Numbered from the stretch's first letter, positions 13,268 to 42,858 are shown. The stretch: DNA of 64,000 bases from Nitrospinaceae bacterium (GCA_965223665.1 OZ245011.1:1088001-1152000), one strand, 5' to 3'. The notes: a model not told the origin generated them from the letters alone. Program-made: numbers and translations.

Positions 13268-13779
13268 TGATGAGGTGAAATGATGCTCTTTTCCCAATAA
13301 ATTGTTCGAATAATCTAACCAAATTTTTCACTCCTTGAAATAAGTTTTACCGATACAAAAAAGATTTTTATAGAATTACTTTTAAAATACTTTGAAAAAT
13401 CCTGAGTTATTTGTGGCTCAATACATTATTAGTAACTACCCACACTCCACTACTATAAAGATTTTCTATTTTTTAACTTTGAAAATATGGCCATACCCTA
13501 CCAACCTTAGAAAAAATTTAATTTTTTTTCTAAATACCCCAAAAGAGCAGCTAATTTTAACCTAGCTAAATACAATATTTTTCGTCCTCTTTTTAAAAGA
13601 TCCGCAAACCTGAATAGAGAAATTAGCCCAGATCAACAAATTTAACCCTTGGATTAATTTTGAAAAGTTGCTATATTTCCTCATCCTTATAGGGTATTTT
13701 TTATCCAAAAGAGGGGCAATAATTTGCTATTAAAAATTTTTGCGGTTTGAGGGCGGTTCTGATCGCGGGACAATCTAAA

Positions 13780-16700: not shown

Positions 16701-19536
16701 CATTCCACCATTTGCATTTAATGAAAACATTGTGACATTAAATCAGGCCGGAATCGATTTAGTGCAAAGTTGGGTGAATGGCAGCAAAATAAATAATGGT
16801 CTTTTGGTTAAGATTGCAGGCAGCACTAATGGGTTAGGCGTTCACTCAAGTGAAGCAACCACTGCCACCAATCGCCCAAAACTCACGATTTCCTATACTA
16901 TTTCAACAAGTGGCGATACCATTCCCCCGGTTGTAACAGCACCACCCGACATTACTACAACCGATACGACACCCGATTTAGGAACTGGTACAGCAATAGA
17001 TAATGTCGATGGTCCCCTAATCCCCACTAATGATGCACCCCCTGTTTTCCCGCTGGGTGTTACTATAGTAACCTGGAGCGCGACTGACAGTTCAGGAAAC
17101 ACTGGGACCGATACTCAATCCGTTACTGTAGAAGAAGCAACTGGAGGTCCAGTAACGGTCAGCTTCCAGAATGGAGTTGCCCCCGATGCTAGTTATAATG
17201 GAACTCAAGACAGCTATTTAAGAGAAACATCTCCCAACCAAAACGAAGGCAATAACACCCAACTATTATCAGATGGAGTTGCATCAGATCCTAGTAATGG
17301 TTTGTTTGGAGAGGTCATGACTGTAGTGGCTTGGGATTTGTCTTCAATTCCCAACGATGCCACTGTTCAATCAGCGAGCATTACTATGGATTTCTTTGAT
17401 GCGAGCTCTGGAGACTATCACTTTTATGAAGCACTTACTCCCTGGACTGAAGGAACGGTAACCTGGAACAATTTTGGTGGAGGAACTGCTAATGTAGGTA
17501 CTAATATTATTGCAACAATACCAGCTTTTTCCTTCAATGAAACCGAGGTCAACTTAACGGCGCAGGGAATCAGTCTGGTTCAGGGTTGGATTGACGGAAG
17601 TATTCCTAATAACGGGTTAGCCTTTAAAACATCCGGCACTAACAACGGCGTAGGAGCTAATTCTAGTGAAGCTTCCACTAATAGACCCAAAATCACTATT
17701 ACGTATACAGTATCTTCAGGCGGTGGTTCAGGAGAAATGAGTTTCCAAAATGGAGTCCTTCCAACTCCTTCCTATTCTGGTACAAACGATAGCTATTTAA
17801 CAGAAACATCTCCGAATCAAAACGAAGGCAATAACATGCAACTTTTATCAGATGGAGTGGCTGCAGATCCTGGAAATGGGTTATTTGGAGAATTGATGAC
17901 TGTTATATCCTGGGATATCTCAAGTATTCCGTCAAATGCGACTGTACAATCCGCAAGTATTACAATGGACTTTTTTGACGCCAGTTCGGGAGACTATCAC
18001 TTTTATGAAGCCCTTACTCCCTGGACTGAAGGAACGGTAACCTGGAACAGTTTTGGGGGTGGGTCTGCGAATGTGGGCACCGATATTATAGCCACGATTC
18101 CTGGATTTTCCTTCGATGAAACCGAGGTCAACTTAACGGCGCAGGGAATCAGTCTGGTTCAGGGTTGGATTGATGGCAGTATTCCTAATAACGGATTGGT
18201 TCTTAAAACTTCAGGCACTAACAACGGCGTTGGAGCAAATTCAAGTGAAGCCGTTACCAACAGACCCAAACTCAAAATTGCCTATTCAACTTCGGGTGGG
18301 TCAGGAGGAGATACGATTCCTCCAGTGGTAACTGCCCCGGCGGATATTACAACCACAGACACAACACCCAACCTGGGAACCGGAACGGCCGTTGATAATG
18401 TGGATGGGACTTTAGTTCCAACGAATAATGCGCCGGCAGTCTTTCCATTAGGGACAACGATTGTAACCTGGAGCGCTACCGACTCTTCTGGAAATACCGG
18501 AACTGATAATCAATCGGTCACCATTACAGATCCGACATCCACGGATACCACACCTCCTGTAGTGACCGCTCCGGCCGATATCACAACAGAAGCCACCGGG
18601 CCGACCACCAGCGTTTCTTTAGGCACCGGCACTGCCAATGATAATGTCGATGGGCCTATAACTCCGACTAATGATGCACCTTCCGGGGGATTCCCTGTGG
18701 GGACCACCATAGTCACCTGGAGTGCTACGGATACCGCTGGTAATACAGGAACGGATACCCAATCCGTCACTATTACAGATACCACTGCACCAACAGTAAC
18801 TGCACCAGCGGATATTACCACTACAGACACAACACCCAATCTGGGAGCCGGAACGGCCAGTGATTTAGTAGATGGATCGATCACGCCAACGAATAATGCT
18901 CCGGGAACATTTCCAATTGGAACGACGATTGTTACATGGAGCGCCACGGATGCCGCCGGCAACACTGGTACAGACACACAAAGTGTTACGGTGCAGTCTG
19001 GAGGTTCGACTACAGTGAACTTAACAAGTTCTAATGATACTTTTATCCGGGAATACCAACCTTTCGATGTTAATGGTTTGATGACAACTCTGGAAGTGGA
19101 TGCAGATCAATTAAACCCGCCCTCTGGTTTCAATGATGAGATCTTCGCAGTGCTTGCCTGGAATGTTTCATCGATCCCGAGCACAGCCAATGTGCAATCA
19201 GTGACGATAACTTTTAATGTGACTAATACCAGTTCAGGAACCTATGAGCTATTCCAAACATTGACTGCCTGGTCAGAGACCACAGCTAATTGGTATACTT
19301 TTTTACCACTTTCCACCTCTCTGGGAAGCAGTGTTCTGGGAACCTTTAATCCTACAGCAGGATCCAATGTGATCACTCTCAATGCTTCCGGAATTAATTT
19401 AGTTCAAGGTTGGATCAATGGTTCAATAACTAATAATGGAATTGCCGTTCGTAGTGGAGGCACAACTGATAATACAATTTTTAATTCAAAAGAAGCGGCT
19501 TCTAACAAACCTCAAATTTCCATTACCTATAACTAG
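13780..19536 (+). CDS. Secreted purple-acid-phosphatase-like metallophosphoesterase with Ig-like, five DNRLRE/CBM96-like and five HYR-like domains
   Basis: Signal peptide (VFAQ); RGPYIQ, IGDSG, LGDNAY, FHHSPY, SAHSHAYERS; repeated D.Y.R...P..N.G/WDISSIP/RPKL.I.Y and DT.PP..TAP.D/FP.G.T.VTW.ATD..GN modules; ATG 13780 preferred over TTG 13747. Confidence 0.85.
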   Translation: MKIQSWVPIFFILLLSNNVFAQALDLPQLVDRGPYIQHLTPTSVSIKWWVFTDDTANNTIHYGTSAGSLNSSNTDTTFRVRNVCGNTECDDFHEYELTISGLTANTRYYYAVGTTTTPSAEESANGTFVTFPISGTVKPTRVWAIGDSGTKSTQALLVLEAMQNYTKSRDPDIWIMLGDNAYVNGDNRDYGDAVFFMYPDFLRNVAVWPTFGDRDGVFADSSTQSGWYFSIFNLPTNAELGGAASGTEAYYSYDYSNIHFVVLDTAETSLSAGSTMLTWLQNDLNTNDKEWVIAYFHHSPYSKGSNDSDPSIIASDVRANALPILEQAGVDLVLSAHSHAYERSFLIDGHYGSSGTFNPGVNQLNGGNGKPLPLPTATGPYNKALVGGQPPANSGTVYAVVGSSGILQTNEIPLDRSFEEAAGPLNHPAMQFSLNTIGSMVIDVYDNRLEAIFLDGFGDIADQFTITHGSTNVSPEIFNVSATHPLTLEVQFSEPLEKISAENISNYSLDNGATIAAATLLDDYRTVRLLTSTLSNTTTYNITVTNVQDYETNTPISSPGIEYSFTPNFTDPPVYSANFQDGYYPNKGYDGTRDTYIFEGLPDTNYGDKKDLIAHGQFEDAIEGEAIIFVSWDISSIPSNAIIQSAIFYWDPYNRSETPYFLRQLLAPWGEISVTWNSYGGDSNIGTDILGTMPPEKFGVNPIALNPDGINIVQGWVNGSIPNYGLALRNAGPGFIPPSGEWWNAVRGRQRQTNNRPRLSITYTLPTGGDSISPSIIAPPDVVADSTGDQTSVTLGSAVAVDNNGSPTVTNNAPAGGFPLGTTIVTWTATDASGNSGIDTQKVTIKVSETISPNTISFQNNVEPSTFYMGAEDAFIRQTSPNQNKGSDSELWSDGLSPDPENTLSGELQSIIKWDISAIPENAVVNSVSVSFNVFNDSPVDNNLYEVKIPWMEDTVTWNVGAEPSGIGTTILGTIPPFAFNENIVTLNQAGIDLVQSWVNGSKINNGLLVKIAGSTNGLGVHSSEATTATNRPKLTISYTISTSGDTIPPVVTAPPDITTTDTTPDLGTGTAIDNVDGPLIPTNDAPPVFPLGVTIVTWSATDSSGNTGTDTQSVTVEEATGGPVTVSFQNGVAPDASYNGTQDSYLRETSPNQNEGNNTQLLSDGVASDPSNGLFGEVMTVVAWDLSSIPNDATVQSASITMDFFDASSGDYHFYEALTPWTEGTVTWNNFGGGTANVGTNIIATIPAFSFNETEVNLTAQGISLVQGWIDGSIPNNGLAFKTSGTNNGVGANSSEASTNRPKITITYTVSSGGGSGEMSFQNGVLPTPSYSGTNDSYLTETSPNQNEGNNMQLLSDGVAADPGNGLFGELMTVISWDISSIPSNATVQSASITMDFFDASSGDYHFYEALTPWTEGTVTWNSFGGGSANVGTDIIATIPGFSFDETEVNLTAQGISLVQGWIDGSIPNNGLVLKTSGTNNGVGANSSEAVTNRPKLKIAYSTSGGSGGDTIPPVVTAPADITTTDTTPNLGTGTAVDNVDGTLVPTNNAPAVFPLGTTIVTWSATDSSGNTGTDNQSVTITDPTSTDTTPPVVTAPADITTEATGPTTSVSLGTGTANDNVDGPITPTNDAPSGGFPVGTTIVTWSATDTAGNTGTDTQSVTITDTTAPTVTAPADITTTDTTPNLGAGTASDLVDGSITPTNNAPGTFPIGTTIVTWSATDAAGNTGTDTQSVTVQSGGSTTVNLTSSNDTFIREYQPFDVNGLMTTLEVDADQLNPPSGFNDEIFAVLAWNVSSIPSTANVQSVTITFNVTNTSSGTYELFQTLTAWSETTANWYTFLPLSTSLGSSVLGTFNPTAGSNVITLNASGINLVQGWINGSITNNGIAVRSGGTTDNTIFNSKEAASNKPQISITYN
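17161..18290 (+). repeat. Tandem intragenic duplication, 579-bp period (two DNRLRE-like domains)
   Basis: GGAGACTATCACTTTTATGAAGC...AACCTGGAACA at ~17410 and ~17989; long identical stretches; ends approximate. Confidence 0.85.
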
Positions 19537-30310: not shown

Positions 30311-31120
30311 TTATTTTGCGCAACGGAACCCAATATGGAAATTTTTATTTTCAGGGAGGAGTCTAAATCTGAAACTGGTCCTTAGAGTACTGGGCTCGCC
30401 TAACCATGAACCTCCTCTAAGTATTTTTTCGGTTCCTTTTCTGGGTCCCTTAGGATTATTTCTCGAAGCATTTTTGTAGTAATTGACATCATACCAATCG
30501 GAAACCCACTCCCATACATTTCCTGACATGTCATACAATCCATATGCATTAGGAGGAAAGCTGCCTATAGGAGAGGTATTTTTATTCTCATCATCAAATT
30601 GATTTAACTTCCAATTATTTTTACAGTTGGTATCACAAAAGTTTCCTTTTAATGATTCAAATTCCATTCCCCAGGAAAACTTGAAACCTTTTCCCCCTTT
30701 CGCCGCTTTTTCCCATTCAGCTTCAGTAGGAAGTCGCTTACCAATTTTTCTACAATATTTGTTGGCATCTTCCCAAGTGACGGATTCAACTGGCAAATTC
30801 TTACCGATAAATTGAGAAGGGTTATTCCCCATCACTTTTTGATATTCGCCTTGGGATACTTCATACTTATCAAGGAAAAAAGAATCTATATTCACCATGT
30901 GTTGAGGATTTTCATCGATATACCAATCCTTTCGACATACTTTATAGTATTTCTTACACTCCTTATAACCTTCATTTTTCTCAGATCCCATCATAAATTC
31001 TCCTGAAGGAATTAATTTCATCCCTGGAGGCGCTTCCCCTTCACCGGCAAATACAATAGGATTTGATACCCAGGTAAACAATAAAAAGAAATAGGTAGTA
31101 AAAAATGCCAATGGTTTCAT
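30311..31120 (-). CDS. FGE-sulfatase (SUMF1-family) domain protein, exported
   Basis: KRLPTEAEWEKAAKGG, PNAYGLYDMSGNVWEW, RGGSW, GFRCA; signal peptide from ATG 31120 (MKPLAFF). Confidence 0.9.
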   Translation of the reverse strand: MKPLAFFTTYFFLLFTWVSNPIVFAGEGEAPPGMKLIPSGEFMMGSEKNEGYKECKKYYKVCRKDWYIDENPQHMVNIDSFFLDKYEVSQGEYQKVMGNNPSQFIGKNLPVESVTWEDANKYCRKIGKRLPTEAEWEKAAKGGKGFKFSWGMEFESLKGNFCDTNCKNNWKLNQFDDENKNTSPIGSFPPNAYGLYDMSGNVWEWVSDWYDVNYYKNASRNNPKGPRKGTEKILRGGSWLGEPSTLRTSFRFRLLPENKNFHIGFRCAK

Positions 31121-31145
31121 TTTAATCTTCTCAACATGGACTAAT

Positions 31146-31694
31146 CTATTTTGTTTGAACAATCTTCGCTAGTTTCAAAACTTTTGAACTAATATAAATT
31201 TTTTCTTCTCTTGATTGCTTATAGTTTATTTCAAAGTGGACTTTTTTATCTTCAATATAAAAATTGACGATTCCTCCAGAGGTCCCAAAATTAGGGGTAT
31301 CACTTACCGTAAGCACATTAGAACCCTTCAAGGCTTTAATTATCTTAGGAAATTCTGATTCTTTTTCAGAGCTTAAAAAGAGCATCTGACAACATTTCAT
31401 TTCTTCTAAAGAGTTTATTTTTTTTACAACTAATCTCCGATTATTATATTTTTTTCTGGGAAGAGATTTTAAGGCTTTCAATACAGGGCTTTCCCCATAA
31501 ACCGCAATTTGAGTTACTTCGCTATCTGGAAACCGATCATCGGGCCACTCCATAAAGGAAAAAAACTTTACCATAAAAGCAGCCTTAATTTGATAAGCTA
31601 GTGGACTTCGGCTTAATTGGTTGTTGGCTCCTGCCGTGTTTAGCCAAAGCAAAGCCATTACCACAATAAAACTATGAATTATTTTATTTATCAT
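31146..31694 (-). CDS. YfiR-family periplasmic regulator
   Basis: Signal peptide; YQIKAAF...F..F.EWP, C..LF, VLTVSD..NF...GGIVNF, V.FEIN, ISSKVLKLA. Confidence 0.88.
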   Translation of the reverse strand: MINKIIHSFIVVMALLWLNTAGANNQLSRSPLAYQIKAAFMVKFFSFMEWPDDRFPDSEVTQIAVYGESPVLKALKSLPRKKYNNRRLVVKKINSLEEMKCCQMLFLSSEKESEFPKIIKALKGSNVLTVSDTPNFGTSGGIVNFYIEDKKVHFEINYKQSREEKIYISSKVLKLAKIVQTK

Positions 31695-31804
31695 TAAAAA
31701 TTAATGCTCAATGATGAATCACGAACAAATGTATTTTCAAATAAATACATCCTATTTTAGGTTAACATTATCTTTTTATTTTTCATGCAAAACTTCATAA
31801 CTTT

Positions 31805-34800
31805 TTAATTTTCTCCATATTCTTTGGAACAAATCTTATCCCCCTTACTTGTGCCAGTGGAAACCACCATACATTCCATTTCAATTTCTTCAGACTCATT
31901 TTCATAAACTAAATACCTTCTAAAATAAGATCCAGAATCTCTTATCTGCTTATTAGTTAAATGCTCAATTTTCATATCAACTAATGAACTCATCCAATAA
32001 GGCAAAAATGTGTCATTTTCCAATTGTCTGGTTTCTAAAATTTCAAAAAGTTTGGCAAATAGAATTGGAGCACCTATCTCAACTTCCATGAGTTCTTCCA
32101 AACTCAAATCTGTTAGTTGTTCCATTATTAAGGTCTGATTAGCCTCAAAAGGATTGTAAAAAGTGTTAATAACATTCGTACTTTGTGTAGATGTTTGCTT
32201 AGGTACATTCTTATCAATTTTTTCTACTGTATTATTAGTTCGATCGACAGGATCTACAGGGGGTGGGGGAGGAGGGCTACTTGACGCAATTATTAAAAAA
32301 TTATCTCCAACATAAGTCAGACTGTAATTGGCTCCGCCGTTACCATCATTGATAGCGAGAGTCCCTTGCGAAATGGGATAACTACCTATAGTTTCACCCA
32401 ATGCACGAACTTGACTACCCAAAAAACTGTCCCCTCCGGCCAATGAACCAACCGAAACACTAAAAGTCAACGCAGGATCCGGGTCTCCAACTATTTTACT
32501 CTGCCCTGAATCAGCGGTAATCGTAATCCCACGCGGTGTGATCGTAAAATTATCACCGACATAAGTAATCGAATAATTCGCCCCACCATTGCCATCGCTT
32601 ACCGTAAGGGTTCCCTGATTAATGGCGTACGTGCCCACATCTTCACCCGCGGCCCGTGCCTGGGATCCGGTTAACGTATCACCACCCGCTAAACTTCCTG
32701 ACGTGATCGTTTGAGTCAACGCAGGATCACTGTTGCCATACACTTTCGTCTGTCCCGCATCGGCGGTAATCGTAATTCCACGGGGTGTGATCGTAAAGTT
32801 ATCGCCAACGTAAGTAATCGAATAGTTCGCTCCTCCATTGCCATCACTTACCGTAAGAGTTCCCTGATTAATTACATACGTTCCAACATTCTCACCTGCG
32901 GCTCTCGCTTGACTGCCAGTTAAGGTATCTCCACCGGCTAACGTTCCTGCAGTGATCGTTTGGGTCAATGCAGGATCACTGTTGCCATAGACTTTTGTTT
33001 GACCGGCATCTGCCGTGATTGTTATTCCACGTGTCGTGATCGTAAAATTATCTCCCACATAAGTGATGGAATAGTTTGCTCCGCCATTGCCATCACTTAC
33101 AGTAAGAGTTCCCTGGTTGATCGCATACGTTCCGACATCTTCACCCGCGGCTCTTGCCTGACTACCGGTCAACGTATCACCGCCGGCCAAACTTCCTGAC
33201 GTGATCGTTTGAGTCAACGCAGGATCACTGTTGCCATACACTTTCGTCTGTCCCGCATCGGCGGTAATCGTAATTCCACGGGGTGTGATGATGAAGTTGT
33301 CTCCAACATAAGTAATGGAATAATTCGCTCCGCCATTGCCATCACTTACAGTAAGAGTTCCCTGATTGATGGCGTACGTTCCTACATTCTCACCAGCCGC
33401 TCTGGCCTGACTACCGGTTAAACTATCGCTACCCGCTAAACTTCCTGACGTGATGGTTTGCGTTAACGCAGGATCACTGTTGCCATACACTTTTGTCTGC
33501 CCGGCATCGGCGGTAAGAGTGATCGGGCGTGTATTCACCGTTAAGGTGCCATTGGTGAAACTGATGCTATACCCTAATAAATCCGCCAGCGTTCCCTGCG
33601 TTATAGGATACGCACCGACATTACTGGTAGACGTGGCTGTGGTTGTTAGACCTCCAGTAAGTGCCGTACCTGCTGTGTCTCCATCGATATATCCGGAAGA
33701 AGCAAAAGTTAGTGCAGGATTACTGTCTCCATAGGTTCTGGCTTTGTCATCGGCGGTAATGGTTAAGGTCGGAGCGATATTGTAAAGCACTCCATTATCG
33801 GTTGCTAAAAAGTTGCCCGGAATGGTGGGATACGTCGTATTGTATCTTTTTTTATCAGGAACCAAACCGCCTAAGGTCGTGGTTGCAGGGTCTGATGAAT
33901 AAATCAACCACCGACCGGAAGCGGCTGATAACGCCCCGGCCCCGGCATTATTGATAAAATCTCCATTATTGGTCGTGGCGATCGTTAAACTGTTTCCCGA
34001 TCCACTGGCCGTTAACACGGTTCCACTGTCCAGTGTGATATCGCTATCTGCCGTCAATAAAATACTGGTTGCATTCACTGCCCCACCATTGACCGTCAAC
34101 GTGGAACCCCCTCCTGTGGCATCTACGGTTAATGCATTGCCCACAGTCGATGCAGCCAATGTGGTTGAAGTATTGTTGGTTAAACTGGCATCCCCGGTAC
34201 CTGAAGTTGTAAAACTCACTGCACCTGAAAGTGCATTCGTTGCCGTATCCAGGGTGATCGATTGGTTCGCCAGGTCTGTAGTGAAACTCGAAGTCCCGCC
34301 TACCGTCAAAGCCCCGCTGTCAGTAATGGCGCCACCGGTTGTGATTGTCAGATTCTGACCCACACTCGACGTTGCCAGATCCACTGCTGTGGTGCCGTTA
34401 TCCAAAGTCACTCCACCGGTTCCGGATGTGTTAAAAGTCACAGCACCGGTCAAAGCATTGGTCGGGGTGTCCAGGATAATCGATTGATTCGCCAGGTCGG
34501 TGGTGAAACTCGAAGTCCCACCTACCGTCAAAGCCCCGCTATCCGTAATGGCGCCACCGGTTGTGATTGTCAGATTCTGACCCACACTCGACGTTGCCAG
34601 ATCCACTGCTGTGGTGCCGTTATCCAAAGTCACTCCACCGGTTCCGGATGTGTTAAAAGTCACAGCACCGGTCAAAGCATTGGTCGGGGTGTCCAAAGTA
34701 ATCGATTGATTGGCCACAGTGGTACTGAAACTGGAGTTGCCCGTTATCGCCAAGGCTCCACTATCCGTAATGGTACCTGCCGAGTTAACCGTTAACGTTC

Positions 34801-37800
34801 CACCCAATGTTGAAGCGGCTAGTATGGTGTTGGTTGAGTCTGTTATAGATACTGCTCCGGTTCCGGAATTGAGAGTTATTGCCCCGGTAAAATCATTTCC
34901 ACCATTAGTTAACGTGATCGTATCGCTTCCTGTCACCGTCAAATTGGAAGTTCCGTTGACATCGAAGTTATTTCCAAATCCTCCCACCTGAGCAATGTCT
35001 CCACCGGCAGTAATCACAAGGTTGCCTAAATTGGAAATGGAAGCCACTGTTACATCCGCCGCTGTATTGGTTCCCGAGTTTAAAGTTAAATGATTAGTAA
35101 ATCCGGTCACCGCACCAATGTTTATAATACTGGCCGCTCCATTACCGGAATCGAAGGTGGTATTTCCTGTCAGTGACAACGCCCCAATATCTATTTGGGT
35201 ATTGGTGGTATTAATCGTCCCGGCAGAAGAAGTGACACCGGCAGTCGTGTCCAGTCCCCCGGTGAAAGTAAGCGTTTTGGCATCATCGTCCAGTAACTCC
35301 ACTCCCCCTGTATTGAGAAAGGTGGTGTCACTGGTCACTGTGCTGTCATCATAGAAACCGACAAAATAAGGTTGGGCCGTAGTCACCAGACTGGTAAGCG
35401 TCGTCGGTCCCATGAAGCTGATCGCACCGGTGGTATCGGTAACACTCACTGTGGTGGCCGTGGTGGTTCCTGAAAAAAATGTATCGCCACTGTCTCTGAT
35501 CGTCAGCGTCCCCACATTAGAGACCGAAGCAATGTTGATATCCGAAGCATTATCAGGCCCCGAATCCAGAGTTAAATTATTACCCGCTCCGGTGATGGCT
35601 CCAATGTTCATGTCACTTGTGGATGCCGTGCCCGAATCCAGAGTCGTTACACCCGCCAGAGTTAAGGCCCCGATATCCATTTGGGTATCCGTGGTGTTCA
35701 CTGTTCCACGGGCCGTGGTGGTTCCCGCTGTCGTATCCAGTCCTCCGGTAAACGTTATGATATCTCCGTCGGTATCTCCAAACGTCACTCCTCCCGTATT
35801 CAGAAAGGTCGTGTCATTGGTAATGGTTCCACCATTGTTAAACAGCACGGAATACCCTTGAGCCGCTGTACTTAAGGTAGTGGCCGTCACCGCATCGGTA
35901 AACGTGATCGCGTTATCTGTATCGGTGAGTGTGATCGTAGTTGCATTGACGGTACTGTTAAAGGTAGTCGCGTCGCTTTGTGTAATGGTGAGGCCGGTTA
36001 ACCCGGTTAGCGCCTGGTTGAAGAAAATGTCACTTCCAGCTGTGGGTCCGCTGTTTTCAACAGTTAAGGTACCACTTGAGGTAATAGTTTCTAAAGTAAT
36101 GTCGCCGCCGGCAGTATTGGTTTTGCCGGCACCATCCGCAATGGTGATATTGATATCCCCCGTTCCTGCATCCAGAGTGGTTCCTACGGCCATGGTGATT
36201 TCTGCATTGCCTGCATCGCGCTCAGCATCCACCACACCGTTGGCTAAAGTTTCATTGGCGGTCAGGTTCAGGTTTCCATTATCGGTCGTGATATTTTGAT
36301 TGATTAAAATACTGCGGCCTGCCTGCATCGTCAGGTTGCCACCATCCCCTGCTCCATTATCGACAGTGATGGCACTATCGACTGTAATATCATTATTCGC
36401 CTGCAGCGTTACATTCTGCGGAGTGCTTAAAAGTGTGGCTAAGGTAGAAGAGGATAAGGTCAAGTCTTCGCTCGCTCGCGTGGCAAAAACTGCATCTCCC
36501 ACCGTATCAGGACCCATATTAAAATTTAAATCACTGAATTGGTAAAGATACACTGCTCCTGAGTTGGAAACACCATTTCCAAATCCATCATCCAAATTCG
36601 CCCCCACTGCCAAACGGGTTCCATCAAGTGAAACCGATCTACCAAAATAATCTCCACCATCCAAATTTTGGTTAATATTTTTACCACCTGTATATCCAGA
36701 TCCTATTGTAGACTCTAAGTTTCCTCCGTTAAAACTACTATCAGTAAAGCTGTAAAGATAAACAGCTCCGCAATCTCCACATCCATTTCCACTGCCATCG
36801 TCCAAGTTTGCCCCTATCGCCAAGCGAGTCCCATCCAGGGATACATCATCTCCAAACAAATCATTTGTATCTAGAGATAGATTGATATTTTTACCACCTG
36901 TATATCCAAACCCTATAGTGGACTCTAAGTTTCCTCCGCTAAAAACACTGTCGGTAAAACTATAAAGATACACCGCTCCATAATCATTACTTCCACTCAA
37001 ACCCAAACCATCATCCAAAAATGCCCCTACCGCTAAACGGGTTCCATCAAGTGAAACCGATCTACCAAAAAAATCTCCACCATCCAAACTTTGGTTAATA
37101 TTTTTACCACCTGTATATCCAGATCCTATAGTGGACTCTAAGTTTCCTCCGTTAAAACTACTATCAGTAAAGCTGTAAAGATAAACAGCTCCGCAATCTC
37201 CACATCCATTTCCACTGCCATCGTCTAAATCTGCCCCAACCGCCAAGCGGGTCCCATCCAAAGAAATATTAATGCCAAAGAAATCTGAACTATCGAGGGA
37301 TTGATTAATATTTTTACCCCCGCTATACCCGGAACCGATGGTTGCCTCTAAAGTGCCTCCGCTAAATACACTATCCGTAAAACTGTACAAATATACCGCT
37401 CCGCAATTTCCACATCCATTTCCAAAACCATCATCGAAATCGGCGCCAACTGCTAACCTGTTTCCATCTAACGATACTCCGGAACCAAAAAAATCTCCTC
37501 CATCCAAGCTTTGGTTAATATTCTTACCACCGGTATAACCACTCCCTATGGTGGCCTCCAAAGTCCCACCGGAAAATCCTGAGTCTGTGAAGCTATAGAG
37601 ATACACAGCCCCATAATCATTACTTCCACTCAAACCCAAACCATCATCCAAATCCGCCCCAACAGCCAACCGAGTTCCATCTAATGATACTGAAAACCCA
37701 AAATCGTCACCAGAATCCAAACTTTGATCGATGTTGCTTCCAATGGAATAACCGGAACCTATGGTTCCTACTAGAGAACCGCCAGTGAAAGAGGAATCCG

Positions 37801-40800
37801 TGAAAGTGTAGAAAAATACGGCACCGGAATCGGTTAATCCATTACCGGAACCATCATCACCTGAGGCACCTACCGCAAGACGAGCCCCATCCAGGGAGAT
37901 CGATCTGCCAAAAGTGTCATCTGAATCCAGGGTAAGGTTAATGTCTTTTGGACGAGTGTTATACCCATCACCCATGATTCCCTGCAATGCTCCGGTTCCA
38001 TCTGTAGCCGAACCGTTATTGCTAAAGGTGGAATCCGTAAATTGATATAAGTAAACAGCTCCACACCTTGTACAATCATTGGCTTGACCGTAGTCGTTAT
38101 TCGATCCAACAGCCAAATTGTTTCCATTTAACGATAAGGACCTTCCAAAAAAGTCTCCCCAGCCTCCCTGCGTATCGAGCAAGGTACTGGCATCAATATT
38201 TTTTCCACCGGTTTTATCTTCCCCAATTACTGCCTGTTGCGTGATACTGGAAAAATCACCTGTGAAAGTATATAAATAAACCGCTCCCTCGTTAGTTCCC
38301 GCGTTCGTTCCGGGACTGGCCGAACCGTCGTCTCCAGAGGCCCCAATGGCCAGGCGAGTCCCATCCAGACCCACTGCGCGGCCAAAACCATCAGATAGAT
38401 CCAGGTTGATATTGAAGTTATTCCCCCCGGTATAACCTTCGCCAATTATGGCTGACAAGGAACCTCCACTAAAAACAGAATCTGTAAAGGTCAATGCATA
38501 GACGGCACCAACCGATTCCAAATTGGCAAATCCGGCATCATTTAAAGATCCAACCACCAGATGGGTCCCATCCAGGGATACACTGGTTCCAAAAGAATCA
38601 CCGGTATCCAATTGAGAGGATAAATTTACATCCTTGGCTCGAGTGTTATAACCCTCCCCTACTATCCCCTGAAGCGCTCCCGTCCCATCCGTGGCAGACC
38701 CATTATTGGAAAATAAACTGTCGGTAAATGTATAGAAATAAACCGCCCCGGTTCCACTTGCGGAATTTCCCTGACCATCGTCTGAAGGAGCTCCAACGGC
38801 AAGACTTGTCCCATCCAAGGATAAAGCGGAACCAAAATTATCATTTGTGTCCAAGTTAAGATTAATATTTTTCCCTCCGGTATAACCCTCACCAATTATG
38901 CCTTCTAGCTGTCCTCCCGAAAATGAACTGTCATTAAAGCTGTAAAGGTAAACCACACCAGACCCCGATTCCACATTTCCGGATCCATCATCATTGGGAG
39001 CCCCAACGGCTAATTGATTTCCATCGAGAGAAACTGCCAGACCAAACTCATCACTGGTTTCAAGAGTTTGACTTCCAATATTCAATGAATCGTATCCATT
39101 ACCAATGATGATGACGCTTTGGTCAAAACTGGTGGTATCCGCAATGGTGATGTTTTTGGGATCGAGGAGGAAGGTTCCTAATCGGTCTCCACGACCGGTT
39201 AAAGCCGTGCCGCCAAAAGTTAATGTATTACCCGAAGAAACTTCAATAAAACCACCAAATCCACTAAGAAACCCGGGTTGAGCTAAATATTGTCCCAATA
39301 CGGGTCCCCCTTGATCTGACCACGTAATGATCGTTCCACCGTCGCCATGGTCACCCAACGCACTTGCCTTCACTTGCGTCGCATCCGTCATCGAAAGAAT
39401 TTGCGCATTCGGCAATTCATCTATTTCCAGATTCTTTCCGCCCTGGTATTCCCCTCCTAAGCGAATCGTTCCTCCACCGGTTTCACCCGATGCATCCATT
39501 TCACCGGAAAGAAACTTTAAGGCAGGTGCCGTTACATCAATTTGCCCACCCTCTCCTTTTGTTCCAATTGCCTTGTATTTGGCGGAAGTCGTAATCTGCT
39601 GCTCTGCCATATGAGAAATCGACCCCCCTTCAGCTCCCGATACATCGATAGAAGCACTGCTGTTCTCCCAGGATTTAGCTTTTGTATTGAGAACAACCTC
39701 TCCACCTTTTCCGGAAAAACCTAATGCTTTGATTGAAGAAGCAATCGATAACCCTCCAGATTCAACAGAAACTATTCCACCAGAATCCCCACTCGCATCC
39801 ACCTCTCCACCCACACTCACCCAATGGGTTCCTTCAATGTCGATAGCTCCTCCATCTGAATCTTGACTTGTAGCAAGCAAATTTCCTTGGTCTATAGTTA
39901 CCGCAGATCCAGAAACTGAAATGCTGCCTCCAGATTCTCCTGCCTGATCTCCCGAGGCATCTAATACCCCGGCAATATGAACGGCCCCTTCTCCACCCTC
40001 CAGAATAATTTCCCCATTGACTACCGATGCCGTTTTCGCTTCCACTACCCCTGAACTGTTAATCACATGGTCCACTACATTTTTGGCGGCATTCACCTCC
40101 ATCACAATCTGCCCACCCTCGGCACTTATGGTTCCACTGTTACTGACTAATGAAATAAGAGGACTGCCATCGAGACCTATCACTTGCTCTAATACCTGCC
40201 CCTCCACACTGAGATTGATCAGTTTGTCTCCATAAAAATCCAGGGTAAACTCCGTCCCCGAGGCAAGATTTACTTTTCCCAGTCGTGCGGTGATTATTCC
40301 TGAGTTTTCCACCCCCGGAGCTACAAAGGCTGCCAATCCCCCTTCAGAAACTGTAATCTGTCCCTGATTAATCACGTAACCCAGGTGGGATGAGGCCCCT
40401 TTAAAAAAATAATTACCTGACATGAAATCTTTGTTGTCGATATCCAGAGTCGTCGCCACCAGACCATTCACATCGATCCGGGATCCCTTTCCAAACAGGA
40501 TTCCATTGGGATTGATCAGCATCAGGTTTCCATTGGAAGAGAGCTTTCCAAAAATATTGGATCGTTCAGAACCGGTCACTCGATTAAGAGTGATTCCATT
40601 AGAGGAGGGTAATTGAAAATCCACATGCTCGTTACTATTGATGCTAAAGCTGCGCCAGTCGATAATAGCTTTATTCGTCGATTGCTGTATCAACAGCTTC
40701 TCTTCATGAGGATGAGAGATAGAGGCGGAACCGGCTTGAATTTTTCCGCCTTGAGGAAGTGCCAATAAATCCTGAGAAAAGGAGAAAAAAAGAACCAGGA

Positions 40801-40930
40801 TTCCCCACATACCTATAAAACCAGGTTTCCATACCCTATGAAGGCGAAGGAAGAATTCATTCTTTATTTCAAGAAGAACTCCAATTGTCTTCTTTTTAAA
40901 ATTCAAAATTCTAGAACAATTCAAGTACAA
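31805..40930 (-). CDS. Filamentous-haemagglutinin (TpsA-type) adhesin with FG-GAP and MBG repeats
   Basis: TPS domain (LPQGG, IIDWRSFSI, LNRVTG, INPNGILFG), LLDPKNITI, 12 FG-GAP-like repeats, beta-helical T/G-rich region, six MBG-like repeats; start uncertain (alternative ATG 40810). Confidence 0.9.
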   Translation of the reverse strand: MYLNCSRILNFKKKTIGVLLEIKNEFFLRLHRVWKPGFIGMWGILVLFFSFSQDLLALPQGGKIQAGSASISHPHEEKLLIQQSTNKAIIDWRSFSINSNEHVDFQLPSSNGITLNRVTGSERSNIFGKLSSNGNLMLINPNGILFGKGSRIDVNGLVATTLDIDNKDFMSGNYFFKGASSHLGYVINQGQITVSEGGLAAFVAPGVENSGIITARLGKVNLASGTEFTLDFYGDKLINLSVEGQVLEQVIGLDGSPLISLVSNSGTISAEGGQIVMEVNAAKNVVDHVINSSGVVEAKTASVVNGEIILEGGEGAVHIAGVLDASGDQAGESGGSISVSGSAVTIDQGNLLATSQDSDGGAIDIEGTHWVSVGGEVDASGDSGGIVSVESGGLSIASSIKALGFSGKGGEVVLNTKAKSWENSSASIDVSGAEGGSISHMAEQQITTSAKYKAIGTKGEGGQIDVTAPALKFLSGEMDASGETGGGTIRLGGEYQGGKNLEIDELPNAQILSMTDATQVKASALGDHGDGGTIITWSDQGGPVLGQYLAQPGFLSGFGGFIEVSSGNTLTFGGTALTGRGDRLGTFLLDPKNITIADTTSFDQSVIIIGNGYDSLNIGSQTLETSDEFGLAVSLDGNQLAVGAPNDDGSGNVESGSGVVYLYSFNDSSFSGGQLEGIIGEGYTGGKNINLNLDTNDNFGSALSLDGTSLAVGAPSDDGQGNSASGTGAVYFYTFTDSLFSNNGSATDGTGALQGIVGEGYNTRAKDVNLSSQLDTGDSFGTSVSLDGTHLVVGSLNDAGFANLESVGAVYALTFTDSVFSGGSLSAIIGEGYTGGNNFNINLDLSDGFGRAVGLDGTRLAIGASGDDGSASPGTNAGTNEGAVYLYTFTGDFSSITQQAVIGEDKTGGKNIDASTLLDTQGGWGDFFGRSLSLNGNNLAVGSNNDYGQANDCTRCGAVYLYQFTDSTFSNNGSATDGTGALQGIMGDGYNTRPKDINLTLDSDDTFGRSISLDGARLAVGASGDDGSGNGLTDSGAVFFYTFTDSSFTGGSLVGTIGSGYSIGSNIDQSLDSGDDFGFSVSLDGTRLAVGADLDDGLGLSGSNDYGAVYLYSFTDSGFSGGTLEATIGSGYTGGKNINQSLDGGDFFGSGVSLDGNRLAVGADFDDGFGNGCGNCGAVYLYSFTDSVFSGGTLEATIGSGYSGGKNINQSLDSSDFFGINISLDGTRLAVGADLDDGSGNGCGDCGAVYLYSFTDSSFNGGNLESTIGSGYTGGKNINQSLDGGDFFGRSVSLDGTRLAVGAFLDDGLGLSGSNDYGAVYLYSFTDSVFSGGNLESTIGFGYTGGKNINLSLDTNDLFGDDVSLDGTRLAIGANLDDGSGNGCGDCGAVYLYSFTDSSFNGGNLESTIGSGYTGGKNINQNLDGGDYFGRSVSLDGTRLAVGANLDDGFGNGVSNSGAVYLYQFSDLNFNMGPDTVGDAVFATRASEDLTLSSSTLATLLSTPQNVTLQANNDITVDSAITVDNGAGDGGNLTMQAGRSILINQNITTDNGNLNLTANETLANGVVDAERDAGNAEITMAVGTTLDAGTGDINITIADGAGKTNTAGGDITLETITSSGTLTVENSGPTAGSDIFFNQALTGLTGLTITQSDATTFNSTVNATTITLTDTDNAITFTDAVTATTLSTAAQGYSVLFNNGGTITNDTTFLNTGGVTFGDTDGDIITFTGGLDTTAGTTTARGTVNTTDTQMDIGALTLAGVTTLDSGTASTSDMNIGAITGAGNNLTLDSGPDNASDINIASVSNVGTLTIRDSGDTFFSGTTTATTVSVTDTTGAISFMGPTTLTSLVTTAQPYFVGFYDDSTVTSDTTFLNTGGVELLDDDAKTLTFTGGLDTTAGVTSSAGTINTTNTQIDIGALSLTGNTTFDSGNGAASIINIGAVTGFTNHLTLNSGTNTAADVTVASISNLGNLVITAGGDIAQVGGFGNNFDVNGTSNLTVTGSDTITLTNGGNDFTGAITLNSGTGAVSITDSTNTILAASTLGGTLTVNSAGTITDSGALAITGNSSFSTTVANQSITLDTPTNALTGAVTFNTSGTGGVTLDNGTTAVDLATSSVGQNLTITTGGAITDSGALTVGGTSSFTTDLANQSIILDTPTNALTGAVTFNTSGTGGVTLDNGTTAVDLATSSVGQNLTITTGGAITDSGALTVGGTSSFTTDLANQSITLDTATNALSGAVSFTTSGTGDASLTNNTSTTLAASTVGNALTVDATGGGSTLTVNGGAVNATSILLTADSDITLDSGTVLTASGSGNSLTIATTNNGDFINNAGAGALSAASGRWLIYSSDPATTTLGGLVPDKKRYNTTYPTIPGNFLATDNGVLYNIAPTLTITADDKARTYGDSNPALTFASSGYIDGDTAGTALTGGLTTTATSTSNVGAYPITQGTLADLLGYSISFTNGTLTVNTRPITLTADAGQTKVYGNSDPALTQTITSGSLAGSDSLTGSQARAAGENVGTYAINQGTLTVSDGNGGANYSITYVGDNFIITPRGITITADAGQTKVYGNSDPALTQTITSGSLAGGDTLTGSQARAAGEDVGTYAINQGTLTVSDGNGGANYSITYVGDNFTITTRGITITADAGQTKVYGNSDPALTQTITAGTLAGGDTLTGSQARAAGENVGTYVINQGTLTVSDGNGGANYSITYVGDNFTITPRGITITADAGQTKVYGNSDPALTQTITSGSLAGGDTLTGSQARAAGEDVGTYAINQGTLTVSDGNGGANYSITYVGDNFTITPRGITITADSGQSKIVGDPDPALTFSVSVGSLAGGDSFLGSQVRALGETIGSYPISQGTLAINDGNGGANYSLTYVGDNFLIIASSSPPPPPPVDPVDRTNNTVEKIDKNVPKQTSTQSTNVINTFYNPFEANQTLIMEQLTDLSLEELMEVEIGAPILFAKLFEILETRQLENDTFLPYWMSSLVDMKIEHLTNKQIRDSGSYFRRYLVYENESEEIEMECMVVSTGTSKGDKICSKEYGEN
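32290..33540 (-). repeat. Five tandem MBG-like repeats, 249-bp period
   Basis: Homologous positions at 32711, 32960 and 33209; unit RGITITADAGQTKVYGNSDPALT...NYSITYVGDNF; a more diverged sixth copy lies just upstream. Confidence 0.9.
34260..34715 (-). repeat. Near-identical 222-bp (74-aa) tandem duplication in the adhesin beta-helix
   Basis: ANQSI.LDTPTNALTGAVTFNTSGTGG...TSSFTTDL twice, DNA nearly identical. Confidence 0.9.
36540..39070 (-). repeat. Twelve FG-GAP/integrin-alpha-like repeats
   Basis: D.FG.(S/A)VSLDG.RLAVGA..DDG....GAVY.Y counted 12 times; a 423-bp two-repeat block is near-identical (e.g. 36612 vs 37035). Confidence 0.85.
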
Positions 40931-41279: not shown

Positions 41280-41951
41280 TTAATCATCTTGATCTTGTCT
41301 TTTTCTATTTAATATCCTAAGTTGCTTTCGCGCTTCTCTGCGGACCCGCATTGCTTTATTCACATTGCTTAAGTCTTCAGCTTTACGGATTCCTGATTTT
41401 TGAAGAATATTTTTATATTTAGGATTATTAAATAGATCTCCAGGCAAGGGACTTCTAAATTTACCTTGGGAAAGTTCTTTTAAATCTTCTATTGAGAGGT
41501 CAATTGCTAATGGATCTTTATTGGAAGGGGCATTCCTAGGGGTTTGTAATTTAGCTTGCGTTTCAAAAGCCGGGATTTCGAAATTTTCTGTGTTGCCTAA
41601 GATATTAACCGAAGCCAGAGACCCTCTTGATTTCCAAATTTCTATCTTATTGTAGTCCTGCAATAGTTCAGATAGTGCTTTGGACCAGTTATCTGATTCG
41701 ATATCTGCAGTAACTAAAAACTCATCTAATTCATTTGGAAATTTAATTTTGATACCACTTTGAGACTCTATACTTCTTAATACTTCACCCAACGGAATGT
41801 TGTCTGCTTTGATTATGGCAGGTTTACTTTTGACCGTAGAAACTTTAGTCAAACGGGTAGACTTTGCAAACGCAACATTTACAAAAACAACAATACTAAT
41901 TAAATAAAAAACTGTAATAAACTTACTTATCGAAACTATGCTTAACCTCAT
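41280..41951 (-). CDS. Exported protein with STN/secretin-N-like domain
   Basis: ATG 41951 after GGAGGG; signal peptide (AFA); IKADNIPLGEVLRSIESQSGIKI...W..AL..LL. Confidence 0.6.
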   Translation of the reverse strand: MRLSIVSISKFITVFYLISIVVFVNVAFAKSTRLTKVSTVKSKPAIIKADNIPLGEVLRSIESQSGIKIKFPNELDEFLVTADIESDNWSKALSELLQDYNKIEIWKSRGSLASVNILGNTENFEIPAFETQAKLQTPRNAPSNKDPLAIDLSIEDLKELSQGKFRSPLPGDLFNNPKYKNILQKSGIRKAEDLSNVNKAMRVRREARKQLRILNRKRQDQDD

Positions 41952-41982
41952 TTTCACATCCCTCCAAGTTGGCCAAAGCATA

Positions 41983-42858
41983 TCACAATAAGGTAAGTAA
42001 TGTAACCTCCGGAGGACAATTGAAACGGATCGGAACAATTAAATGCCCTACCCCTCGGGTTATATACGTTTTCCGATTTTTATCTTCCACCAGACCTCGC
42101 AAGTACTTTTGATTGCGTATTCCAGGGTGAAAGGGAGGGCCAATAAAGGGAAATGATATTTGCCCGCCATGGGTATGCCCTGAAAGGACTAAATCGATGT
42201 TGTGTTCGGGAGCAATTCTGTAATTAACTTCCGGGTTATGGCTTAAAAGAATTTTTATTGATTTGGGATCGATTCTTTTCATAGCCTTTTTTAAAGAGAA
42301 ACTTCTCTGCCACAAGTCATCAACTCCCAAGAGCGTTATAAAATCGTCACCTATATTTAATTGACTATGTTGATTGCGAAGCCAATGAACATTTAACTTT
42401 TCTTCAAAGGTTTTTAAAAGAGCATTTGTAACCTCCGGGCCACTCCAAAAGTCGTGATTGCCAAGAACTGCATATGTTCCATATTTGGGTTTCAATATGG
42501 CCAAGGCATTTACCAAATTATCTAAATATTTGGTTTCAAAATCGTGTATTTGGTTTCTAGAAGTCCTTAAGGTGTGACCGATAAAATCACCCGTTAATAC
42601 GAGTAAATCAGGGTTCTCATTTTGAGCTAAACGGGCAGCATGAGTTAAATGCTCTAAACTTACTATAGGTGAGGAATGCAAATCACTGAGAAGGGCTATT
42701 TTAAAACCTTTGAATGCAGGGGGTAAATTATTTAGAGTTATAGGAACCGATTCTAAGCGAATTTGACTTTCAAAGGTATTGCTCCAACCCTTAGTTACTC
42801 CTAATCCCGAAATTAAGGACAAACCTAAAATTGATTTTAAAAATCGTCGCCGGTTCAT
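41983..42858 (-). CDS. Calcineurin-like metallophosphoesterase (YkuE/YaeI-like) with twin-arginine-like signal
   Basis: MNRRRFLK; SDLH, TGDF, GNHD, SHNP, GHTHGGQ. Confidence 0.9.
   Translation of the reverse strand: MNRRRFLKSILGLSLISGLGVTKGWSNTFESQIRLESVPITLNNLPPAFKGFKIALLSDLHSSPIVSLEHLTHAARLAQNENPDLLVLTGDFIGHTLRTSRNQIHDFETKYLDNLVNALAILKPKYGTYAVLGNHDFWSGPEVTNALLKTFEEKLNVHWLRNQHSQLNIGDDFITLLGVDDLWQRSFSLKKAMKRIDPKSIKILLSHNPEVNYRIAPEHNIDLVLSGHTHGGQISFPFIGPPFHPGIRNQKYLRGLVEDKNRKTYITRGVGHLIVPIRFNCPPEVTLLTLL

Follow-up and report, generated by a model that had tools for sequence, protein, structure and literature searches.

The window analysed here is a stretch of 64,000 nucleotides from a Nitrospinaceae bacterium (GCA_965223665.1, OZ245011.1:1088001-1152000), and the element in question is a block of three genes on its minus strand which encode a giant adhesin of the two-partner secretion type (TpsA), a periplasmic YfiR-like protein, and an FGE-sulfatase-fold protein with a signal peptide (Table 1). 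The adhesin ends in a tail bearing a short peptide that also heads outer-membrane proteins encoded beside yfiR-like genes, and it is this peptide that ties the block to a known signalling family. Pfam finds in the adhesin a TPS domain (E 6.6e-35), 12 copies of FG-GAP_2, 4 of DUF5649, and 6 of MBG_2, and the TPS domain together with this repeat architecture identifies the product as a TpsA-type passenger; its true start may lie a few codons downstream of the first TTG. A gap of 110 bases separates the adhesin gene from the yfiR-like gene, the FGE-like gene starts about 25 bases further on, and the sole terminator-like site in the region (30049-30028) follows the FGE-like gene. The YfiR-like protein has an N-terminal hydrophobic leader ending in AGA, which reads as a signal peptide, and matches solved YfiR chains (E 6e-13); the model for true YfiR, NF053586, whose cut-off is 85, gives it and its counterpart at the paralogous adhesin locus described below only about 44 bits (44.2 for the window copy). 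Neither a yfiB- nor a yfiN-type gene adjoins the window locus, YfiB not having been searched genome-wide, and no TOL_0244-type receptor gene adjoins the yfiR-like gene, whose upstream neighbor is the TpsA gene; such receptors are encoded elsewhere in the genome.

Table 1. Positions of the features discussed (window coordinates unless a locus handle is given)
Feature	Position	Strand	Basis or remark
TpsA-type giant adhesin	31805-40930	minus	3041 aa counted from first TTG
TPS secretion domain PF05860	39974-40717	minus	residues 72-319; NPNGI visible in sequence
Ser3-Pro6 linker (SSSPPPPPP)	32258-32284	minus	between last MBG repeat and tail
150-aa non-repetitive tail (P0007)	31808-32257	minus	proposed periplasmic
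Proposed YfiR-like docking peptide EANQTLIMEQLTDLSLEELMEVEIGA	32069-32146	minus	tail residues 38-63; predicted interface
Peptide core LTDLSLEELMEVEI	32116-32075	minus	conserved block in 3/3 tails
Most conserved tail block YFRRYLVYENESEEIEMECMVVS.GT..GD.ICS.EYG, with C-x13-C	31814-31927	minus	3-tail alignment
Cys pair C-x13-C near protein end	codons 31873-31871, 31831-31829	minus	kept in 3/3 tails
YfiR-like periplasmic protein, 182 aa	31146-31694	minus	PF13689 (DUF4154) E 1.3e-41, profile 1-143/143
FGE-sulfatase-fold protein with signal peptide	30311-31162	minus	PF03781 E 1e-60; probable start ATG 31120
252-aa open reading frame (P0008)	41280-42038	minus	just upstream of adhesin
Orphan CHASE8-HAMP-HisKA-REC hybrid kinase	59371-61287	plus	Pfam; NF053592 200.8 bits vs cut-off 194
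Phenol_MetA_deg barrels of other genomes	L040:8802-9971, L067:8937-9971, L090:8844-9899, L069:8771-9859	plus	Pfam for first three

An earlier note on this DNA had described, after the MBG repeats and a proline linker, an AT-rich, non-repetitive end of about 150 residues carrying a peptide of receptor type and a terminal cysteine pair, followed by a yfiR-family gene with neither yfiB nor yfiN beside it, and all of this is borne out: the tail DNA has 30-37% G+C, compared with 45-52% in the body of the gene, the peptide and the C-x13-C pair are where the note had placed them, and the yfiR-like gene and the FGE-like gene are followed by a P-type ATPase gene. A degenerate second copy of the peptide claimed in the same note is present in its letters (LVDMKIEHLTNKQI, 31984-31943), but we rejected it as a motif, there being no match to the hidden Markov model (HMM) of the peptide, no predicted contact, and only moderate, partial conservation. 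The core peptide comprises residues 2939-2952 of 3041 and lies about 90 residues from the C-terminus; whereas elsewhere it opens a mature outer-membrane beta-barrel, here it belongs to the tail of a secreted passenger. Translated in six frames, the 4.35-Mb genome (38% G+C) contains the strict motif twice, each time in a TpsA tail that adjoins a yfiR-like gene. The block around the cysteine pair, in which the model of the tail predicts a hairpin (130-132/140-142) with low confidence, is by analogy a candidate disulfide anchor of the HMW1/HxuA kind. Among 61 related genomes, the tail rises above noise only in the window's genome (G000), twice, and in a congener (G001). An NCBIfam scan of the tail returned nothing, and a Pfam match to Phage_int_SAM_6 was taken as noise (20.3 bits, cut-off 27.5). 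Predicted alone from a 3-row alignment, the tail has a mean predicted local distance difference test score (pLDDT) of 38.2, too poor for a fold search.

The family to which the peptide points is catalogued in NCBIfam as three linked models, NF053590 (TOL_0244, receptors), NF053591 (TOL_0243, YfiR-like proteins), and NF053592 (kinases, "YfiR-like protein-associated"), which we refer to as the trio. Receptors of such receptor/yfiR-like/kinase operons start with [DE]L..L[ST]LEELM.[IV].V, and since NF053590 itself begins at the D of this DL..LS.. peptide, the peptide is the N-terminus of the receptor family, as the earlier note had stated. One weak match in the tail search was a receptor from a genome of the same order (G026), which is encoded in an operon of two receptors, a YfiR-like protein, and a kinase: its start (...SELTDLSLEELMEVEV...; mature N-terminus ...SELTDLSLEELMEVEVTVTSVSKKK) is identical to the tail peptide at 13 of 14 positions. 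The motif search for yfiR adjacency proposed in the earlier note showed strong enrichment of the motif beside yfiR-like genes. Back-translated L-[S/T]-L-E-E-L-M was found 27 times, in 22 of 120 genomes of the phylum, compared with 3 times for the reversed pattern, and by comparison of coordinates 20 of the 27 matches lie at most 4.6 kb upstream of a DUF4154 gene on the same strand. These 20 comprise 16 verified receptor N-termini, 2 matches known by coordinates only (G100 and G101, each 2.0 kb upstream of a DUF4154 gene), and the 2 TpsA tails. When 23 of the 27 were retrieved, 18 proved to be receptor N-termini of the trio family (16 with a yfiR-like gene in the locus, 2 without one in the flank that was fetched) and 5 were of chance type, lying in short unrelated open reading frames (ORFs) or in no ORF of at least 90 residues. 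The 18 receptor peptides, all from other genomes, were made into an HMM of 17 residues that ends before the VTSVSKK following them and includes no adhesin sequence. It ranks the window tail first among 24,109 six-frame ORFs of the window's genome (17.3 bits, E 0.004; next E 1.1), with the caveat that the collecting pattern itself determines the core of the model; the window's peptide is nearer to the cross-phylum consensus than are the peptides of the genome's own receptors.

DUF4154 is matched at six places in the window's genome, of which one is a pseudogene. Two of the genes belong to classic operons that encode a TonB-dependent receptor and a CHASE8 kinase along with the YfiR-like protein, and a third receptor-linked gene (L004:9413-9979, minus) faces, and is divergent from, a TOL_0244-type receptor gene split into two ORFs (L004:11224-13213, plus; a Plug ORF of 312 residues and a barrel ORF of 373, overlapping by about 70 bases); the kinase adjoining it gives no CHASE8 match, and the split receptor may reflect a frameshift or a decaying module. 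Elsewhere in this genome, a DUF4154 remnant with an internal TAG stop (G000:C1:3697771-3698007, L005) directly precedes an intact kinase with an NF053592-type sensor (187.8 bits), which seems to have lost its YfiR-like partner. Another genome, from the same order, has an open frame of 1114 residues that includes a DUF4154 match (G028:C4:86712-87134) and may represent a fusion of a YfiR-like domain with a larger protein. The YfiR-like protein of the window scores 124.9 bits with NF053591, 0.1 under the cut-off of 125, and that of a paralogous adhesin locus described below scores 125.6; the genome's receptor-linked copies score 110, 84, and 63 bits, below both adhesin-linked copies.

How far the peptide travels with the family was seen in a survey of 80 YfiR-like loci from many phyla, collected with a 10-row YfiR-like alignment at one genome per species, in which the ORFs were classed by phmmer with the proteins of the window's genome. 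A receptor gene adjoins the yfiR-like gene in 64 of the 80 loci (55 on the same strand, 9 divergent), and a kinase with a CHASE8 domain follows in 74. At a threshold of at least 8 bits, the peptide HMM matches 42 of 9,780 ORFs, namely 39 receptors, 3 barrels of the Phenol_MetA_deg type, and no others; 31 of the 64 adjoining receptors are among the matches. A further 31 receptor ORFs of more than 600 residues give no HMM match, and of these 13 fit a looser regular expression, 17 show a variant by eye (e.g. KDLSDASLEELSNIQV), and 1 loses its N-terminus at a contig end. At four of the 80 loci, from Latescibacterota, Rokuibacteriota, and Nitrospiria metagenome-assembled genomes, the receptor is replaced by a barrel of about 350 residues (L040, L067, L090, and, by eye, L069). 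The first three belong to the outer-membrane barrel family Phenol_MetA_deg (E ~2e-7 to 6e-7); all four end in an aromatic residue and carry a DLTELSLEELMELEI-type peptide directly after the signal peptide, and each is followed at once by a yfiR-like gene and the gene of a CHASE8 kinase. Barrels of this type match neither Plug nor TonB receptors. The peptide therefore does not belong to the Plug or the TonB machinery; it goes with the outer-membrane partner of the YfiR-like protein, of whatever kind that partner is. A third class of carrier is the adhesin tail, found in one genus only, and the sole class in which the peptide is near the C-terminus.

These findings bear on a different reading of the peptide, as a TonB-box extension or a dock for some other periplasmic protein such as TonB, in which case the adhesin copy would serve energised export or anchoring and its yfiR-like neighbor would not be its partner. 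In the receptors the peptide does run straight into VTSVSKK, which stands at the place of a TonB box and which we take to be TonB-box-like, so that another periplasmic partner is conceivable; moreover, two receptors with canonical peptides (L018, G065:C185, ITELSLEELMDITV; L019, G023:C1, FTDLSLEELMEVRV) have neither a yfiR-like gene nor a CHASE8 kinase gene in the flanks retrieved, L018 meeting a contig end on the upstream side only, so that the peptide can occur without a yfiR-like gene next to it. Nevertheless, the peptide heads barrels without Plug in the same operon position, 20 of its 27 occurrences lie beside DUF4154 genes, the adhesin has only the part that precedes VTSVSKK, and the complex model described next puts the peptide on the YfiR-like protein with a score well above controls; we consider this reading quite improbable. 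In the receptors themselves, YfiR-like binding and TonB engagement might be mutually exclusive.

The complex of tail and YfiR-like protein, whose prediction the earlier note had suggested, was modelled from mature YfiR-like residues 24-182 (27-row alignment) and tail residues 31-150 (3-row alignment). It scored 0.79 (0.77, 0.82, and 0.79 in the separate runs), the best of three controls scoring 0.19; the mark so reached is also reached by 58 of 80 solved complexes and by 2 of 110 mismatched pairs, counts which are rough here because our own alignments were used. The runs share at least 90% of their contacts. Although 120 tail residues were on offer, the YfiR-like protein is predicted to touch only residues 38, 41-42, 44-46, 48-49, 51, 53-54, and 56-63, that is, exactly the peptide EANQTLIMEQLTDLSLEELMEVEIGA, and nothing elsewhere in the tail. 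On its own side, the contacts fall on helix alpha1 (YQIKAAF..F, corresponding to the family's most conserved motif, Y.IKAAF..F) and on residues 147-153 and 171-175, which map, by hand on an HMMER alignment, to about V155-T161 (beta7) and S179-L183 (alpha4) of Pseudomonas aeruginosa YfiR. The YfiB-YfiR structure paper (PMC4655355) describes on that protein a large conserved surface formed by alpha3, alpha4, beta7, alpha1, and adjoining loops, about 30% of which is covered by YfiB and which is also predicted to bind YfiN; it has YfiB contacting YfiR through a folded OmpA-like domain (E144, S146, E163-R171) rather than a short peptide. Because YfiB uses a folded domain and different contacts, it is less likely, though conceivable, that the high score arises from mere memory of the YfiB-YfiR complex. 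The model lends support to a putative binding of the peptide by the YfiR-like protein.

The whole block occurs three times: in the window, at a paralogous locus in the same genome (G000:C1:1059410-1072233, within L001, G000:C1:1056001-1076000), and in the congener. At the paralogous locus, the TpsA gene is again followed by the yfiR-like and then the FGE-like gene, the adhesin is longer (an open frame of 3784 residues, C1:1060879-1072233), and its tail is 64% identical to that of the window; in the congener, the block is orthologous, with the window's flanking genes, a tail 79-80% identical, and an identical peptide. No second adhesin locus was found in the congener, where a second high-scoring yfiR-like gene (C13:240904) proved to belong to an ordinary receptor/YfiR-like/kinase/regulator operon. 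The FGE-like gene stands third in all three blocks (also L001:3410-4225, L007:2-850), and neither an FGE-like gene nor a TPS domain occurs at any of the 80 YfiR-like loci surveyed. The best NCBIfam match of the FGE-fold protein is a partial one to GldK/PorK (122.8 bits, cut-off 350). We saw no Cys in its C-terminal RGGSW...R stretch, where the catalytic cysteines of true FGE lie, and it may be a non-enzymatic partner of the Cys-loop block of the tail.

Alignment of the three tails, all those known, shows two conserved blocks, TLIMEQLT[DE]LSLEEL...EIG.PIL.AKLFE.LE and the Cys-pair block, so that the motif is retained in all three adhesin copies. One could nonetheless imagine that the adhesin replaced a receptor and kept or captured a short stretch of it which is now an evolutionary leftover without function, the tail being an anchor or a pro-piece. 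The arrangement is indeed limited to one genus, a kinase gene is absent from two of the three loci, and drift has changed 4 of the 14 residues of the peptide in the paralogue (LTELSLEELLDTEI; E 50 with the receptor HMM). Yet TLIMEQLT[DE]LSLEEL is invariant, bar its D/E position, although the tails as a whole are only 64% identical, the window's peptide has stayed nearer to the cross-phylum consensus than the genome's own receptor peptides, and the adhesin-linked yfiR-like genes are intact and have the top NF053591 scores among the genome's copies, all of which makes such a relic very unlikely.

Two kinases are candidates for the output. At the paralogous locus, a CHASE8-HAMP-HisKA kinase is encoded directly upstream on the same strand (NF053592 188 bits, below the cut-off of 194); it is a non-hybrid kinase of 477-491 residues, and in the approximately 780 bases between there is no ORF of at least 60 residues on that strand. 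No kinase gene adjoins the window locus or that of the congener. The nearest NF053592-type kinase to the window's yfiR-like gene is the orphan hybrid kinase, about 18 kb beyond the start of the TpsA gene, which has no DUF4154 gene beside it. Its sensor shares 65% identity with the sensor of a receptor-linked kinase and 52% with the one at the paralogous locus, so that similarity between paralogues does not settle which kinase pairs with the YfiR-like protein of the window.

The distance of any kinase from the window and congener loci lends some weight to control running in the opposite direction, in the style of LapD-LapG-LapA or CdrA, with the YfiR-like protein binding the tail in order to regulate retention, release, protease protection, or pre-export chaperoning of the adhesin rather than a kinase. 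The binding model and the conserved block would fit such inside-out control equally well, and a conserved periplasmic FGE-fold protein follows the yfiR-like gene in all three loci; moreover, CdrA, itself a TpsA, is under the control of a periplasmic protease for which a cleavage site near the C-terminus of CdrA has been proposed (PMC4694147). The YfiR-like family adjoins CHASE8 kinases in 74 of 80 loci, however, the paralogous locus has just such a kinase upstream, and an orphan of the same type lies within the window. The paralogous-locus kinase and the constant link of the family to CHASE8 favor signaling to a kinase, and inside-out control appears unlikely.

What the computations show directly is the gene content of the locus and, for the peptide, what it is, that it is enriched beside yfiR-like genes, and that it is portable. 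The reading we lean towards, as somewhat better than even, is that the locus is a variant of the receptor/YfiR-like/CHASE8-kinase relay in which a TpsA adhesin takes the place of the receptor and its tail signals to a kinase through the YfiR-like protein. Specifically, i) the adhesin would be exported by a TpsB encoded elsewhere in the genome; ii) the proline linker and the 150-residue tail, closed by a disulfide loop, would remain in the periplasm as an anchor, by analogy with HMW1 and HxuA; iii) the tail would display the peptide of about 25 residues (core LTDLSLEELMEVEI) as do the N-termini of the receptors and barrels that partner YfiR-like proteins; iv) the periplasmic YfiR-like protein would bind the peptide through the conserved alpha1/beta7/alpha4 face, as modelled; v) the YfiR-like protein so held at the outer membrane could not act on the CHASE8 domain of the kinase, by analogy with YfiB-YfiR-YfiN; and vi) kinase output, whether from the kinase upstream of the paralogous locus or from the orphan at 59371, would then track the amount or state of anchored adhesin. 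The earlier note had gone from the same peptide to a portable YfiR-binding motif through which the adhesin would control a YfiN-type sensor. Each refuting outcome named in that note was looked for computationally, and none went against the idea. Portability stands, given the Phenol_MetA_deg barrels at 4 of 80 loci, and the binding is a prediction of the model; in place of diguanylate cyclases of the YfiN type, the sensors in this system are histidine kinases with CHASE8, and that the adhesin controls a kinase is something we infer by analogy.

Besides the points already cited for its alternatives, several observations weigh against the proposed relay. Neither of the two YfiR-linked TpsA genes of the window's genome adjoins a TpsB (ShlB/FhaC-type) gene; of the four ShlB-type genes in the genome, three adjoin other TpsA genes and the fourth (C1:4056083) has no TPS-domain gene nearby. 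The tail is confined as well: a phmmer search with its 150 residues against 1.84 billion representative proteins returned only its own protein, a search for the tail region among proteins of 1672-5322 residues returned only the congener's orthologue (2 of 8 candidates), and its conservation is that of three related sequences from two genomes of one genus. The fold of the tail is uncertain in the complex, with a pLDDT of 42-44 (at least 41), as compared with 38 alone, and the predicted interface on the YfiR-like protein is not significantly more conserved than the rest (mean entropy 1.67 vs 1.88 elsewhere, Mann-Whitney p 0.14). Finally, the sensor of the orphan kinase is nearer to that of a receptor-linked kinase than to that of the paralogous-locus kinase.

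A broader version of the proposed relay is possible, though we hold it with considerable doubt: the peptide would be a portable tag enrolling any outer-membrane-associated protein into a YfiR-like/CHASE8 relay, and the adhesin an outside-in sensor of surface or force. If so, with the tail threaded through the TpsB pore, secretion, shedding, or a pull on the adhesin would change the amount of YfiR-like protein held at the outer membrane.

The other genes near the block appear unrelated to it. The P-type ATPase gene lies downstream, and upstream are the 252-residue P0008 ORF, a metallophosphoesterase gene, and PolA. The P0008 ORF is kept at the same place in the congener (L016:14602-15324) and has a signal peptide or membrane anchor; we considered it as an extra part of the system and dropped it, since its loosely motif-like AIDLSIEDLKEL is not among the best 25 rows of the peptide HMM search, and we assign it to no family, its FecR_C-like and secretin-N-like stretches being weak (E 0.03-0.05). 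The window also encodes a multi-PAS/GAF histidine kinase of 1728 residues (657-5843, plus), a metallophosphatase of 1929 residues with HYR and CBM96 domains (13747-19536, plus), and an HYR/pectate-lyase-like protein of 768 residues (61393-63699, minus).

The trio occurs in many phyla and is catalogued in NCBIfam, and we found no mechanism for it in the literature: our searches returned no experimental paper on the trio and nothing combining CHASE8 with TonB-dependent, DUF4154 was mentioned only in the YfiB-YfiR structure paper, and YfiR and two-partner secretion appeared together only in unrelated papers. From the present locus, it seems that the YfiR-like adaptor and its outer-membrane partner meet through a defined peptide of some 14-25 residues. 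Since three unrelated kinds of partner bear this peptide, synthetic peptides and point mutants would suffice to test the mechanism directly, and the adhesin version, which isolates the docking peptide from its barrel context, offers a simple experimental handle for the whole family. If the proposed relay exists, it would connect an adhesin of the two-partner type to a two-component kinase, a simple route for sensing adhesin display or engagement; the link between large adhesins and the sensing of surface attachment is known mostly in the inside-out direction (LapD-LapG).

Comparison with known systems places the locus as follows. CdrA/CdrB with LapG-LapD, and the prodomain of FhaB, likewise involve large two-partner secretion adhesins whose C-terminal end is read by periplasmic regulators, and CdrA, a TpsA, is released by the periplasmic protease LapG, with a candidate cleavage site in the C-terminal end (PMC4694147); control in those systems is proteolytic and exerted from inside, whereas here the adaptor is a non-enzymatic YfiR-like protein and the proposed flow is from adhesin to kinase. 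Like HMW1/HMW1B and HxuA/HxuB, the locus encodes a TpsA with a non-repetitive C-terminal piece ending in a conserved Cys pair, and according to a review (PMC5422565) a small C-terminal domain with a disulfide, located in the periplasm, anchors HMW1 and HxuA to their TpsB; however, phmmer detects no sequence similarity between them and the present tail, which is longer and carries the proposed docking peptide, and whose proposed periplasmic topology is modelled on that precedent. In YfiBNR (TpbB/DgcN; HmsCDE; P. aeruginosa, Escherichia coli, and Yersinia), as in the relay proposed here, a periplasmic DUF4154 protein is held to move between a protein anchored in the outer membrane and the CHASE8 sensor of an inner-membrane signaling protein, and the predicted contact face overlaps the conserved YfiR surface (PMC4655355); the window locus differs in having no YfiB (an OmpA-like lipoprotein) and no GGDEF output beside it, and in its low NF053586 score.

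Nearest of all is the trio itself, with which the locus probably shares the YfiR-like family (NF053591, 124.9 and 125.6 bits about a cut-off of 125) and shares the kinase type (NF053592) and the proposed docking peptide of the outer-membrane partner, but from which it differs in having a TpsA instead of a receptor, in carrying the peptide near the C-terminus rather than at the mature N-terminus, in adding an FGE-fold gene, and in having its kinase upstream or unlinked rather than downstream. FecA-FecR-type transducers are alike in that a periplasmic extension of an outer-membrane protein informs an inner-membrane signaling protein; there, in contrast to the present system, the partner has an STN domain, no soluble adaptor stands between, and the output is an anti-sigma factor instead of a kinase. 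The locus would thus work like the trio and, more distantly, like YfiBNR, and is a regular member of neither; the adhesin version is narrow in reach, having been found in one genus only.

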